Source: Candidatus Aenigmatarchaeota archaeon
Lineage (GTDB): Archaea > Aenigmatarchaeota > Aenigmatarchaeia > CG10238-14 > SpSt-28
Length of the DNA: 64,000 bases
Assembly: GCA_038997165.1 (NCBI GenBank)
Contig: JAWBAK010000001.1
Coordinates: 192,001-256,000, forward strand
Direction of reading: 5' to 3'
Positions 5,173 through 47,949 of this stretch are shown here, piece after piece; the stretch's first letter is position 1; every line of letters starts with the position of its first letter. The notes beneath the pieces were generated by a model. That model was not told where the DNA came from. It did not search any database and was given only the letters and a program-made list of their open reading frames with translations. The translations under genes were made by a program, and so were the position numbers.

Positions 5173-5454
5173 TCACTTTCCTAATCTTTTTCTCAATTCT
5201 TCTAATATTTCTTCATCTGTAACTTTTTGTGCAAATTTCTGTTTTAAATAACATAATTTTGCCTTTCCTACTTTTCTTTGATATATTATTTCTGCTCCTA
5301 ATAATTCATGTAAATATTTTGCTACAGTTATTCTACTATATCCTAGCTCATCTGAAATTTGCTGTATTGTTAGACCTTCTGGATGTTTTCTTAACAAATC
5401 TATTATTAATTTTCTAGCATCTTCTTTTTTCTTTTTTTCCTCTCTTTCCTCCAT
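5173..5454 (-). CDS. Winged helix-turn-helix protein
   Basis: IIDLLRKHPEGLTIQQISDELGYSRITVAKYLHEL followed by the wing RKVGKAKLCY. Confidence 0.85.
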   Translation of the reverse strand: MEEREEKKKKEDARKLIIDLLRKHPEGLTIQQISDELGYSRITVAKYLHELLGAEIIYQRKVGKAKLCYLKQKFAQKVTDEEILEELRKRLGK

Positions 5455-42702: not shown

Positions 42703-43304
42703 TTATATATAGAGGTGCTGAAGCCATAATAGAAAAGATAGATGAAAACACAATTGTGAAAAAAAGAATAGAAAAAAAATATAGATTAAGAGAAATAGAT
42801 GAAAAAATAAGAAAGGAAAGAACAAAAAAAGAAGTTAAGTTTTTAAGGGAAGTTAGAAGATTTGGAATTAATGCTCCTAAAGTTTTAGAAGTTAGTGATT
42901 TCGAGTTTAAAATGGAATATATAAATGGAAAAAAATTAAAAGATATTTTAAATAAAGAAAATTTTAATTTTTTTGCAGAAGAAATAGGAAAGATTGTTGC
43001 GAATTTACATTTACATAATATAGTTCATAATGATTTAACCTTATCTAACATGATTTATTATGAAAATAAAATTTATTTAATAGATTTTGGTCTAGCAAAT
43101 TATTCTGTTTCAATTGAAAATAAAGCAGAAGATGTTTTAACACTTTATTATTCAATAAAATCTCTTTTCCCAGAAATATATGAAGATTTTTTTAGAATTT
43201 TTAAAGATACTTACACTAAGTTATATCCTAATGGTAATAATGTTATAGAAAGAATGAAAGAAATATTAAAAAGAGGAAGATATTCGATAAGAAATGGTAA
43301 CTAA
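42699..43304 (+). CDS. bud32: KEOPS kinase Bud32
   Basis: GAEA, HNDLT.SN, IDFGL and RGRY. Confidence 0.95.
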
Positions 43305-43566
43305 AAAATCTCTTGTAGAAGTATTATTTAAAGATAAGCCTTTAAAAGTACTTTTAGTATTATCTGATGGTATTCCAAAAAATATTACACAAATATATAA
43401 AAAAGTAAGAACAACTTATTCACATACGTTGAACATTCTTAAAGTTTTTTATGAGTTAGAATTAATAGAATTTGAAAAAATGGGAAGAGATAAAGTTGTT
43501 AGATTATCAAAAAAAGGAGAAAAAATTATTGAAATTATTAAGAAATTTTTAGGATATTTAGATTAG
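43294..43566 (+). CDS. Winged-helix DNA-binding protein
   Basis: NITQIYKKVRTTYSH...LIEFEKMGRDKVVRLSKKG. Confidence 0.85.
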   Translation: MVTKKSLVEVLFKDKPLKVLLVLSDGIPKNITQIYKKVRTTYSHTLNILKVFYELELIEFEKMGRDKVVRLSKKGEKIIEIIKKFLGYLD

Positions 43567-43691
43567 TTTCCAATATTTTTTATGAAAATTCGGAATTTTT
43601 TTATGAACTTTCAAATATTTTTTATGAACTTTCCAATATTTTTTATGAAAATTCGGAATTTTTTTATGAACTTTCAAATATTTTTTATGAA
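43566..43691. repeat. Six tandem 21-bp repeats (ABC-ABC), iteron-like
   Basis: Units (G/C)TTTCCAATATTTTTTATGAA, AATTCGGAATTTTTTTATGAA and CTTTCAAATATTTTTTATGAA each occur twice. ATGAA recurs at 43582, 43603, 43624, 43645, 43666 and 43687. Confidence 0.95.
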
Positions 43692-43927
43692 ATCTCAGAA
43701 AGATATCAAAGTAATAAAGTAATAATAGGGAAAAAACTATAAAGAATAAATTTTTAATTAATTTTTAGTTTTTTAAATACTATAACAGTGTAATATTTTA
43801 GTTATAATTAAAAAGAATTTAACAAGAAAAATAAGAAGAGTTAAATAGAGTTATAAGAATATAAAAAATAATAAATTATTATAATAAAATTATTACTCAA
43901 AAAGAAATTGGAAAAATCATAAAAAAT
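43566..43927. other. Candidate replication origin (iterons + AT-rich tract + inverted repeat copy)
   Basis: Inverted 19/21 copy ATTGGAAAAATCATAAAAAAT at 43907..43927. This is the largest non-coding gap in the window and lies inside a replication gene cluster. Confidence 0.5.
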
Positions 43928-43945
43928 CAACTAATTTAATTATTT

Positions 43946-44212
43946 ATGAGGAGGGGAAGACCATCAAAAAGATTTGAGATATATAAATTAATAGAAGAAT
44001 ATTTTAAAGAAAATCCATTTCCTTCCAACATAAATAGAATTTTGAGGTATGTTTATGAAAAAACAGGACAAAAATATAGTTGGAACACATTTAAAAAGTA
44101 TTTAGAAGAATTGGCTAAGTTAGATAAAATTAAAAGAATAAAATTACCTCATTCTAAAATAAAAGATAAAGAAGGTTTAACATTATATTACTTAGAAATA
44201 AAAAATGAATAG
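43946..44212 (+). CDS. AT-hook + winged-helix protein
   Basis: N-terminal RRGRP; recognition helix SWNTFKKYLEEL and a wing ending LYYL. Confidence 0.8.
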   Translation: MRRGRPSKRFEIYKLIEEYFKENPFPSNINRILRYVYEKTGQKYSWNTFKKYLEELAKLDKIKRIKLPHSKIKDKEGLTLYYLEIKNE

Positions 44213-45179
44213 AATATTTGAGTTAATGAAAAAGGGTTATTTTGTTCAAGATCCTCAAATACTTTCATTAATGGATGATGAGGAATTCAAAAAATTTTTA
44301 CTTTTTTTACCAAAATCAAACGAACCAAGAATTTTAAAAAAAGAGGATGTTATTACTTTTTTGCAAAAAATAAGAAGAGAAATTTCTATTAGAATTTTCG
44401 AGCCACAAATAAAACAAAAAATATCGAACCTAGATTTATTAAATATTTTAAGAGAAAGATATAATTTTTTATCATCAATTATAAAAAAGAAGCTACTATT
44501 TTTTAATTTACTTTCTATAAATAAAATTTCAAAAAAATATAGAACATTTTCTCTTATAGGTATGGTTTACGAGATTAATGGTAAAAAAATTACAATAGAT
44601 GATTTATCATCGAAAATAGATATTTGGATAGAGGATGAAGAAAAATTAAAATTAATAGAGGAAGATTGCGTTATTGGGGTCAAATGTTATTGGAAAAACG
44701 ATGAAATTTATGTTAATGAAGTTATTTTTCCAGAGTTTGAAGAAAAAAACAATTTAGAAGAAGTAAAAGAGTTTAGAATAGGAATTTTTAATAAAGATAT
44801 TGATATTGATGTCGATATCGTTATACAGCTGGATAAAGAAAACAAGATTTTAAAAAATAAAGTATATGTAAACTCTTCATTTCCTGTTCACCAAATTTAT
44901 GTTAATAACTCATTAATATTGATAATAAATCTTAGACATGTAAAATTTAATATAAACAAATTCTTAAAGTTAAGATTAGTAACTTCTAAATCACAAGAAA
45001 TACTAAATTTTGGTGGAGATTTTTTCTTAATAAAAAATAAACCAAGTTTAATTATAACTTTAAATTCTAATAAAGAAGAAATAAATAAGATAGATGATAT
45101 TTTTTTAGTTAATTTAACTAATTTATCAGAAAACAACTATTTTATCGATTTAAAGGAAGAAAAAATTTTCAAAGTTTAA
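44205..45179 (+). CDS. PolD DP1-like / B-subunit-like protein with eroded phosphoesterase domain
   Basis: LRERYNFLSSII...SLIGMVYE...IDDLSSKI...EDCVIGVK...EVIFPE resembles the DP1 OB region. The SDxH, GNHD and GHxH motifs are absent. Confidence 0.7.
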   Translation: MNRIFELMKKGYFVQDPQILSLMDDEEFKKFLLFLPKSNEPRILKKEDVITFLQKIRREISIRIFEPQIKQKISNLDLLNILRERYNFLSSIIKKKLLFFNLLSINKISKKYRTFSLIGMVYEINGKKITIDDLSSKIDIWIEDEEKLKLIEEDCVIGVKCYWKNDEIYVNEVIFPEFEEKNNLEEVKEFRIGIFNKDIDIDVDIVIQLDKENKILKNKVYVNSSFPVHQIYVNNSLILIINLRHVKFNINKFLKLRLVTSKSQEILNFGGDFFLIKNKPSLIITLNSNKEEINKIDDIFLVNLTNLSENNYFIDLKEEKIFKV

Positions 45180-45234: not shown

Positions 45235-47949
45235 ATGAATACTAAAATTTTTCTTTTGGATGTTGATTATGATGTTGTTGATGATAAACCGATAATTAGA
45301 ATTTTTGGAAAAGATGAGAGTGGCAATTCTATAACTGTTTTTGTTAGAGATTTTTTCCCATATTTTTATGTAAAAGTTAAAGATGAAGAAAAGTTTTTAG
45401 AGTTCTTAGAAAAAAAATTTAAAAATTTAATAGTTAAAGTCGATACTGTAGAGAAATTCTTACCCATAGGTTACCAAGAGGAAAGAACAAAATTATTTAG
45501 AATATTTTTAAAGAATCCATCAAAAGTTCCACTAATTAGAGAGGAATTAATGTTACAAGATTTCGTTGAAAATACGTACGAAGCCGATATTCTTTTTAAG
45601 TATAGATTTATGGCAGATAAAAATCTTAGTGGCTGTAAATGGTATGAAGTAGAAGGAATTTTTGTTAATAATACAAATGTTGTATTTACAAATAAAAAAA
45701 TAGAGGCATCAAATATTAAAGAGATAGATTATCATGAAATTCCTAAGTTTAAGATTTTATCAATTGATATAGAAGTTGCCAATAAAGAAGGTATTCCAGA
45801 TCCAAAAATTCATCCAATTAGTATAATTTCATTAGCTTTTTATCCAGAATACAATGAAAAGAGAAATCTAGTTTTAATTTCTAAAAAAGTAAGCGTAGAT
45901 TTAGAATATGTTTTATCGTTTGAGAACGAGAAAAAAATGTTAGAAAGTTTTATTAATATAATTAAAGATTATGATCCAGACTTTATAATTGGATATAATA
46001 TTAACAATTTTGATATCCCTTATATAATTGAAAGATTAAGACAAAACAAAATAAAACCATATTTAGGAAGAGCAAAAAAAGTTGCAAAAAGTCAAAGAAT
46101 AAGCGAAGAGAGATATAAAAATTCTATTGTAGGGAGAGTAATCATAGATTTTTATGATATTTTAAAAGAATTTTCTAAAAAAGGTATGTTTAAGACAAAA
46201 AGATTAGGTTTAGGTGATGTAGCAAAAGTATTAATAGGTAGAGGAAAAGAAGATGTAGAACATAGTGAAATAATCAAACTATGGAATGGAGATGAAAAAG
46301 ATTTAGTAAGGCTTATAAATTATGCAAAAACTGATGCTGAATTAGTTTTAGAAATAATGCTTAGTAGAGATTTTATTTCTCAATATATAGAAATTTCTAG
46401 GTTAAGTGGTTTATTATTACAAGATACTTTATCTGGTTCTGAATCTTCCAGAATAGAACAATTTCTTTTAAAAGAATTTAACAAAAATAATTTTGTAATT
46501 CCTAACAAACCAAACAAAAGAGAATTAAAAGAAAGAGAAAAACAAGAAGTTAAAGGTGCTATAGTTTTAGAACCAAAAATAGGTTTGCACGAATTTGTTG
46601 CTTATCTCGATTTTAAATCTCTATATCCAAGTATAATAATAGAATATAACATTTGTCCAACAACTTATTTAAAAAATAGAAAAGAAGGAGTGGATTTAAT
46701 TATATCTCCAATTAACACATATTTTGTTTCAAAAAACGTTAGAGAGGGAATATTTCCAAGAGTTTTAAAGAGATTAATAGAAGAAAGAGATAAGATTAAA
46801 AAGATGATGAAAGATGAAAAAGATCCAAACAAAAAGATTTTATTGGAAGCAAAACAATTGGCACTAAAATTATTGGCAAACGCATTTTATGGATATACTG
46901 GATTTTTAAAAGCTAGATTTTTTGTAGCTGATATAGCAAATACTATAACAGCTTATGGAAGATATTGGATTACTAATGTTAAAAAATTTGCCGAAGAAAT
47001 GGGATATGAAGTTGTTTATGGTGATACAGATTCTATAATGGTAAAAACAAATGCAAAAAGTTTGGAAGAGGCTTTCAAAATTGGAACAGAATTAGAAAAA
47101 TTAATTAATTCAAAAACACCTCAAAACATTAAAATGAAAATAGAAGGAATAATGAAAAAAATTCTTTTTGTAACAAAAAAGAAGTATGTTGGTTATTTAT
47201 TTGAAAGTGAAAAAGAAGATGGCAAAATAGTAATGAAAGGAATTGAAACTATAAGAAGGGATTGGTGCGAATTAGTTTCGGAAACTTTATCAAAAGTTAT
47301 AGAAATTTTATTGATTACTGGAAGCGAAAAAGAAGCTTTTGAATATGTTAGAGAGGTTTTTAGAAAGTTAAGAAATAATGAAATAGATGTAGAAAAGCTT
47401 GCTATAATTAAATCAATTTCAAGACCTCTTAACAAATATAAGGGTCAGCAACCGCATATAGAGCTTGTCAAAAAAATGATACGAAGAGGGGATCCAAACA
47501 TTCCGGGAGTTGGAGATAGAGTTAGTTATATTATAGTCGCCGGTCCACAAAAAATTGTTGAAAGAGCAGAGAGCGTTGAATATGTAAAAAAATACAAAAT
47601 ACCAATTGATGCTGAATACTATATTTATCATCAGTTATTACCACCTCTAGAAAGAATATTTAATGCTATTGGAATAACATCTTCTCAATTTATTACAGGT
47701 ACTAAACAAAAATCTATTATTGGAATTTTACTTCAAAACGGAAATGGAGCTAATAAAAATCATTCTAATGCAGGTATTAAACAAGGATTTATTAATGAAA
47801 TAAATATAAAGGAGTTTGTTGGATTCGTGTGTAGTAATTGTAATAGCGTTTATAAAAGAATGCCATTAAGTGGAATATGTAATTTGTGTAATGGAGAAAT
47901 TGTTTTTTATTCTGCTAATGCGAAATCAAAGATTATTTCATTAGATTAA
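45235..47949 (+). CDS. polB: Family B DNA polymerase with C-terminal Zn finger
   Basis: Exonuclease motifs DIE, YNINNFD and YAKTD; polymerase motifs DFKSLYPS, KLLANAFYG and YGDTDS; C-terminal CSNC...CNLC. Confidence 0.98.
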   Translation: MNTKIFLLDVDYDVVDDKPIIRIFGKDESGNSITVFVRDFFPYFYVKVKDEEKFLEFLEKKFKNLIVKVDTVEKFLPIGYQEERTKLFRIFLKNPSKVPLIREELMLQDFVENTYEADILFKYRFMADKNLSGCKWYEVEGIFVNNTNVVFTNKKIEASNIKEIDYHEIPKFKILSIDIEVANKEGIPDPKIHPISIISLAFYPEYNEKRNLVLISKKVSVDLEYVLSFENEKKMLESFINIIKDYDPDFIIGYNINNFDIPYIIERLRQNKIKPYLGRAKKVAKSQRISEERYKNSIVGRVIIDFYDILKEFSKKGMFKTKRLGLGDVAKVLIGRGKEDVEHSEIIKLWNGDEKDLVRLINYAKTDAELVLEIMLSRDFISQYIEISRLSGLLLQDTLSGSESSRIEQFLLKEFNKNNFVIPNKPNKRELKEREKQEVKGAIVLEPKIGLHEFVAYLDFKSLYPSIIIEYNICPTTYLKNRKEGVDLIISPINTYFVSKNVREGIFPRVLKRLIEERDKIKKMMKDEKDPNKKILLEAKQLALKLLANAFYGYTGFLKARFFVADIANTITAYGRYWITNVKKFAEEMGYEVVYGDTDSIMVKTNAKSLEEAFKIGTELEKLINSKTPQNIKMKIEGIMKKILFVTKKKYVGYLFESEKEDGKIVMKGIETIRRDWCELVSETLSKVIEILLITGSEKEAFEYVREVFRKLRNNEIDVEKLAIIKSISRPLNKYKGQQPHIELVKKMIRRGDPNIPGVGDRVSYIIVAGPQKIVERAESVEYVKKYKIPIDAEYYIYHQLLPPLERIFNAIGITSSQFITGTKQKSIIGILLQNGNGANKNHSNAGIKQGFINEINIKEFVGFVCSNCNSVYKRMPLSGICNLCNGEIVFYSANAKSKIISLD

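Follow-up and report, generated by a model that had tools for sequence, protein, structure and literature searches.

A phased repeat element in place of ORBs: a candidate chromosomal replication origin in Aenigmatarchaeota without canonical Orc1

The 64,000-nucleotide stretch of DNA analysed here, referred to as the window, carries an element of six phased repeats, an AT-rich tract and one inverted repeat copy that is very probably a chromosomal replication origin. We propose, with a probability of roughly 63%, that 21-22-bp repeats and a small winged-helix protein, predicted to bind these repeats, took the place of the ancestral Orc1 and its ORBs at this origin. The layout in the window is repeats(+), AT-rich tract with a central palindrome and repeat(-), directly ahead of wHTH_B, DP1 and PolB, and at the same site sister families carry ORB(-), palindrome and ORB(+), followed by orc1, DP1 and PolB. 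Due to this synteny with ORB/Orc1 origins, the retained central palindrome and a switch of the codon-corrected strand skew in 4/4 stretches, the idea of a non-ORB origin, put forward in a preliminary description of the window, is supported.

The left arm of the element (43567..43692, + strand) consists of six units at the exact 21-bp spacing described before, in the order A-B-C-A-B-C', and TRF reports a 63-bp period at 100% for 43567-43691. The core TTTTTTATGAA, described as invariant, is present in 6/6 units. The units are predicted wHTH_B sites, and the arm occupies the position of the left ORB in sister families. An independent assembly (run X7) contains one contig that spans the stretch and differs in several letters of the array, so that the array itself is real but the perfect form of the reported ABC-ABC arrangement is a strain-level feature. 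The AT-rich tract that follows (43693..43906), the predicted DNA-unwinding element, was likewise described correctly; it measures 214 bp with 14.0% GC, a content this low being found in 0.8% of the 214-bp windows of the genome, and its poorest 150 bp have 10% GC, which 0.1% of the genome matches. In the Orc1-type relatives, such a tract lies between the ORBs. The right arm (43907..43927, - strand) is a single inverted repeat copy ending 18 bp ahead of the wHTH_B start, and its reverse complement agrees with 43617-43637 at 19/21 positions, as had been claimed. While the repeats and the inverted copy were thus recorded early on, the palindrome TATAACAGTGTAATA at 43781..43795 was overlooked; it has one mismatch to TATAACAnTGTTATA and is common to the ORB/Orc1 origins of the phylum.

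The reported lack of an ORB holds, with zero ORB-like matches in the element at up to three substitutions, and a genome-wide ORB scan found no strong ORB pair anywhere in the genome. In a genome-wide ranking with a matrix built without the sites of the window's own genome (G000), the seven repeat copies are the top seven among 21 matches, and the element reaches a cluster score of 145 versus 41 for the next independent cluster. A search for the 21-mer elsewhere leaves the element as the sole such cluster in the 652-kb genome, which is 94.5% complete and carries the element on a 549-kb contig among core genes. Rfam gave no match. The 46-aa ORF noted earlier in the array is present, and five genomes of the genus have a frame that stays open across the array, which would fit the caveat that the array is a coding VNTR for a short repeat peptide. 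We reject this explanation as extremely improbable, because relatives space their copies not only by 21 bp (13 times) but also by 22 bp (12 times) and 44 bp (9 times), by which the helical phase is kept and the reading frame is not. Copies moreover occur in both orientations, and the length and ends of the ORF vary, with G053 having no ORF at all.

The locus was compared between the window and 54 loci of relatives, which are labelled Aenigmatarchaeota. In families f5 and f7 (16 loci), the gene order is metallophosphoesterase, intergenic region, canonical orc1, DP1-like and PolB, with orc1-DP1like in 16/16 loci and the upstream metallophosphoesterase in 15/16. In families f2, f3 and f6 and in genus g2 of f1, the order is metallophosphoesterase, wHTH_C, intergenic region, wHTH_B, DP1-like and PolB. 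The order wHTH_B-DP1like-PolB is found in all 38 wHTH_B loci, and both upstream genes are visible in 23 of the 38, the metallophosphoesterase being the same as at Orc1-type loci. In the window, wHTH_B (43946..44212, + strand) encodes an 88-aa winged-helix protein with an N-terminal RGRP motif at the orc1 position of sister families. The following degenerate DP1 (PolD small subunit)-like gene (44205..45179, + strand) is a conserved downstream anchor in both origin types, and PolB with a C-terminal Cys4 motif (45235..47949, + strand) is another conserved downstream anchor. The DP1-PolB pair and the degenerate DP1 are already known as a feature of the lineage from the accessible parts of PMC7544198 and PMC12680538; DP2 was not found in the 94.5% complete G000, as is known for the phylum.

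In the window's genus the left flank is rearranged, the element being flanked by RPA-RadA-Bud32-wHTH_A on one side and wHTH_B-DP1like-PolB on the other, and wHTH_C has moved to G000:C1:23591-23956, where it stands without repeats. The 90-aa winged-helix gene wHTH_A (43294..43566, + strand) adjoins the element in this genus only (6/6 loci with upstream sequence) and is likely a bystander after the rearrangement. Of the two flanking winged-helix proteins considered in the preliminary description, the downstream one travels with the repeats and the upstream one does not. Because the repeats remain with wHTH_B where wHTH_C has moved away, this pattern points to wHTH_B as the predicted repeat binder. 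Several loci show further genes. An extra gene of ~200 aa, which by eye looks like a nuclease plus a winged helix, is located between element and wHTH_B in G047 and G035 (L049, L060); similar intervals of 800-1000 bp are also seen at several of the loci L250-L312. In G051, G035, G127 and G120 (including L052 and L060), wHTH_B is preceded by another, diverged wHTH_B-like gene, and within the window a 93-aa HTH protein (5173-5454, - strand) weakly resembles the wHTH_B profile (E 3e-5) and has no repeats.

All 16 Orc1-type intergenic regions carry an ORB on the orc1 side and TATAACAnTGTTATA at 0-1 mismatch between the ORBs, with the far-side inverted ORB present in 9/16 at the threshold used. A matrix scan found the 21-bp repeat in 0/16 Orc1-type regions of the order. 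In other families, the palindrome lies upstream of orc1 in 9/10 genomes (≤2 mismatches) and ORBs in 10/10. Since both recur there, the layout ORB / palindrome / ORB-orc1 is, judged by these sequences, the ancestral one; this ORB layout of the phylum matches the ORB(-)/DUE/ORB(+) pattern given in the accessible part of bioRxiv 10.64898/2026.08.15.744077. The ORB origin of G204 (L237) has four palindrome copies, and in G044 more ORB-like sites are located on the downstream side of PolB, ~5 kb away from the origin (G044:C8:306667-306746).

The scan of the synteny set detected no ORB in wHTH-type regions. Outside the window's genus the repeat was matched in 21/30 wHTH-type regions, two short regions being skipped, with a matrix derived from the sites of this genus and picked after iterating on all wHTH-type regions, which makes this count not fully independent. 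A separate set of 63 wHTH_C loci comprises 52 with wHTH_B downstream; of these 52 intervals, 46 contain the repeat and 27 convergent copies, 18 the palindrome at ≤2 mismatches and two a loose ORB match. In many relatives the inverted copy is found ~23-48 bp upstream of the wHTH_B start. The final codons of wHTH_C, stop included, are often shared with the first forward repeat (L055-L058 and others). In genus g4 (G009, G011), wHTH_B has no upstream gap and no clear element stands beside wHTH_B or wHTH_C.

Strand skew had been suggested earlier as a check. Raw cumulative GC and AT skew gave no clean switch, coding-strand bias dominating the curves, and for the most part little could be learned from gene orientation or from the skews at first and second positions. 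Among four codon-corrected measures tried per genome, third-position G-C with coding-strand and amino-acid effects removed was the consistent one. It was applied to the 549-kb contig of G000 and to 400-kb stretches of G005, G055 and G039, a fifth wHTH-type genome (G012) being left out, and its extremum was located at -2.5, +5.4, +0.4 and +3.6 kb from the element, respectively, hence within 5.4 kb in 4/4. The change-point has p=0.0005 in each of the four, and the chance of such closeness under shuffled gene order is 0.016, 0.044, 0.016 and 0.031. In each stretch the repeat cluster is top-ranked, and the result survives dropping the 5% extreme genes. With the strands taken apart, the extremum lies within 6 kb on both strands for G000 and G005 but on a single strand for G055 and G039; in G055, GC3 without correction has its extremum 37 kb away from the element. 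The corrected curve reaches a minimum in G000 and G005, whereas G055 and G039 show a maximum, and the arms are unequal. The two Orc1-type controls also differ, as the A-T skew of G030 switches at its ORB origin (0.4 kb) with a polarity like that of G039, while G044 gave only a weak, opposite signal; thus, even ORB origins seem to differ in polarity. The differing polarity, the missing element in g4, the nine of 30 regions without a repeat match and a retained divergent Cdc6 paralogue count against the proposal.

Besides the central site, G000 has only one further palindrome site at ≤1 mismatch, two in total. This perfect copy is located outside the window at G000:C1:532616-532630, in a short gap between divergent SUF-like genes and towards the distal end of the skew curve, whose maximum is at 496-530 kb; the origin and these genes may share a regulator site. 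In G005 a palindrome copy stands ahead of a putative regulator gene. The palindrome in front of the SUF operon, the inverted copy ~23-48 bp ahead of the wHTH_B start and fold matches of wHTH_B mostly to transcription regulators would all fit repeats that are only the operator of the wHTH_B-DP1-PolB operon, with replication starting elsewhere or at no fixed origin and the skew being a fossil. We regard this as unlikely, as it leaves unexplained why both ORBs were replaced exactly while the palindrome between them was retained, and why arrays occur 250-380 bp upstream. Furthermore, the g4 operon has no repeats, the cassette of a distant family lies away from PolB, and the opposite polarity in two Orc1-less genera suggests that the skew was renewed after their split.

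For the proposed replacement origin, we hypothesize that wHTH_B binds the repeats at two-turn spacing and so would coat one DNA face on either side of the AT-rich tract. It would also repress its own operon via the inverted copy, which likely doubles as an autoregulatory operator. More tentatively, wHTH_C and/or the retained, unlinked Cdc6 paralogue might recruit MCM, the gene of which is present in the genome, and replication might proceed both ways. wHTH_B is a candidate origin-recognition protein, and we consider it somewhat probable that wHTH_B and wHTH_C are the recognisers of the repeats. The AlphaFold models of wHTH_B (pLDDT 86) and of the ~130-aa wHTH_C (pLDDT 84) each show a single winged helix. 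A named family was found for neither protein in a PDB sequence search, Pfam or NCBIfam, and an Atlas feature search with wHTH_B returned unnamed Aenigmatarchaeota/Nanobdellota clusters and no named family. Descent of either protein from a winged-helix fragment of Orc1 was rejected, the profile-profile probability being <1%.

The fold list of wHTH_C includes several Orc/Cdc6 domains (best Z 9.7, rmsd 3.5, 102 aligned) and TubR (Z 8.6-9.0, rmsd 2.3-3.3, 86-94 aligned), whose scores tie with those of unrelated winged helices and serve as a lead only. TubR proteins bind centromeres, so that the repeats could be a centromere-like or chromosome-organising site beside the origin, bound by wHTH_B/C. 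Centromere-like sites are often near origins, and skew cannot separate the two. We give this explanation little credence: the TubR scores tie with those of Orc1/Cdc6 winged-helix domains and others, the convergent copies occupy the ORB positions, and among the genes directly adjacent to the element in the window and the 54 relative loci, many of which have unannotated neighbours, no partition motor gene (ATPase or GTPase) was recognised.

The phyletic pattern is consistent with an exchange of initiators. In 274 genomes, each ≥80% complete, canonical Orc1 was assigned at E≤1e-100, a cut-off placed in the observed score gap, and was found in 0/74 genomes of families f1, f2, f3, f4 and f6 versus 185/200 others. 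wHTH_B is present in 64/74 genomes of the five families versus 8/200 others, and wHTH_C in 64/74 versus 4/200; since related genomes are not independent, these counts describe a pattern and are not a test. The four outside genomes with wHTH_C belong to family f33 and all four also have canonical Orc1. Their wHTH_B-wHTH_C cassette (L209-L212) has a reversed order and is situated among genes for membrane or secreted proteins, away from PolB; a different 21-bp tandem repeat precedes wHTH_B in 2/4 of these loci, and an ORB origin is present in G255. Because it coexists with a normal Orc1 origin, the f33 cassette is not the main origin there; it is possibly a second origin or the relic of a donor module. 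In a PolB tree (46 rows, quick method), nine Orc1-bearing outgroup genomes split off with a support of 99, so that Orc1 is, on this tree, ancestral. The same quick tree gives two replacement changes and is also compatible with one. No relative of wHTH_B or wHTH_C was found in the viral contigs searched, and a mobile donor from this source was dismissed.

A Cdc6-like protein has been retained. All 61 genomes of the order that were searched have a TIGR02928 match, most of them to a full-length paralogue, and the sole Cdc6-like gene found in G000 is a divergent one on contig C2 (G000:C2:46402-47442) with intact Walker A/B motifs and a winged-helix-like C-terminal region. PF09079 gave no match in G000 despite this gene, a blank that reflects limited sensitivity. 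Due to these properties, the paralogue could be the true recogniser: the element would still be an origin, but a switch of paralogue with a changed box would have taken place, and wHTH_B/C would be accessory or regulatory. We consider this improbable. The divergent paralogue is unlinked to the element, has neither intergenic space nor repeats of its own and is also encoded by families whose ORB origins are normal. wHTH_B and wHTH_C turn up in the genomes that miss Orc1, and a distant family has 21-bp repeats ahead of its wHTH_B.

The replacement origin combines traits of several systems. Plasmid iteron replicons of the RepA/RepE/pi type have 17-22-bp phased direct repeats beside an AT-rich tract. 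The element resembles them in its 21-22-bp phased direct repeats beside such a tract and in a winged-helix gene whose promoter is covered by an inverted site, and differs in being chromosomal, clade-wide and syntenic across families. Neither the family and PDB-sequence matches nor the top 50 fold matches included a Rep initiator; the term iteron-type, used in the preliminary description, thus fits the architecture, but homology to Rep was not found. With archaeal oriC1, as portrayed in the accessible parts of PMC4010727 and bioRxiv 10.64898/2026.08.15.744077, it shares the locus, the AT-rich core, flanking sites that converge and, immediately downstream, a gene for a DNA-binding protein. It also shares the central palindrome with the ORB origins of this phylum, and its AT-rich unwinding element lies between oppositely oriented sites. 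In contrast to oriC1, the element has no ORB or G-string, its sites form phased arrays, its neighbour is an 88-aa winged-helix protein without ATPase domain instead of orc1/cdc6, and canonical Orc1 was not found in the 74 genomes.

Sulfolobus oriC3 is an Orc1-independent origin at which the product of the adjacent winged-helix gene, WhiP, binds AT-rich repeats (accessible parts of PMC3607249, PMC4010727 and PMC5333045), with the layout IR(+)/central motif/IR(-) (PMC3607249, PMC4010727 and the Ori-Finder-Arch preprint, each in its accessible part). Orc1 independence, an adjacent winged-helix gene and inverted flanking repeats around a central motif are common to both. However, these sources describe WhiP as a single Cdt1-related protein with tandem winged helices that serves a third, added origin, whereas two separate single-domain proteins are encoded here, at the ancestral oriC1 site. 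The IR TACTACTACTAC and the ucm TTATACAAAC, as given in the accessible part of the Ori-Finder-Arch preprint, are absent from 43567-43945, and Pfam and NCBIfam gave no match of wHTH_B or wHTH_C to a WhiP-like family, the separation from WhiP being made by description. The palindrome recalls Sulfolobus ucm/UBP, a conserved motif between flanking boxes that also occurs elsewhere in the genome (PMC12141716, accessible part), in its central position and further genomic copies; its sequence is different and palindromic, and the likeness is positional only. By analogy, the element would work like a WhiP-type or iteron origin while being a member of neither. We found no description of it in the literature, including the accessible parts of PMC11880632, PMC7544198, PMC12680538 and the Ori-Finder-Arch preprint; the supplements lay outside this search and may bear on its novelty.

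Archaeal initiators named in the accessible literature are Orc1/Cdc6, including divergent methanococcal forms, and WhiP at an added origin only. If our proposal is true, a further type of initiator acts at the ancestral origin, and a new archaeal initiator system would have arisen by a rare joint swap of initiator and origin boxes at an essential locus, in a phylum already known, from the accessible literature, for swapping PolD for a eukaryote-like PolB-DP1 pair. With about even odds we extend the proposal to the whole five-family clade (74 genomes), which would run its main origin without Orc1, two ATPase-less winged-helix proteins and iteron-like repeats having displaced Orc1 and the ORBs in place while the unwinding element and the phylum-wide palindrome were kept. 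This palindrome, central to the ORB origins of the phylum, is apparently undescribed. Origin finders based on ORBs would miss these genomes, and the element explains why. With 360 bp of DNA, proteins of 88 and ~130 aa, one Cdc6 paralogue and MCM, the system is minimal and testable, and it opens the questions of how recognition of an origin may be separated from the AAA+ loader and by what route an initiator-origin pair that is essential can be exchanged.
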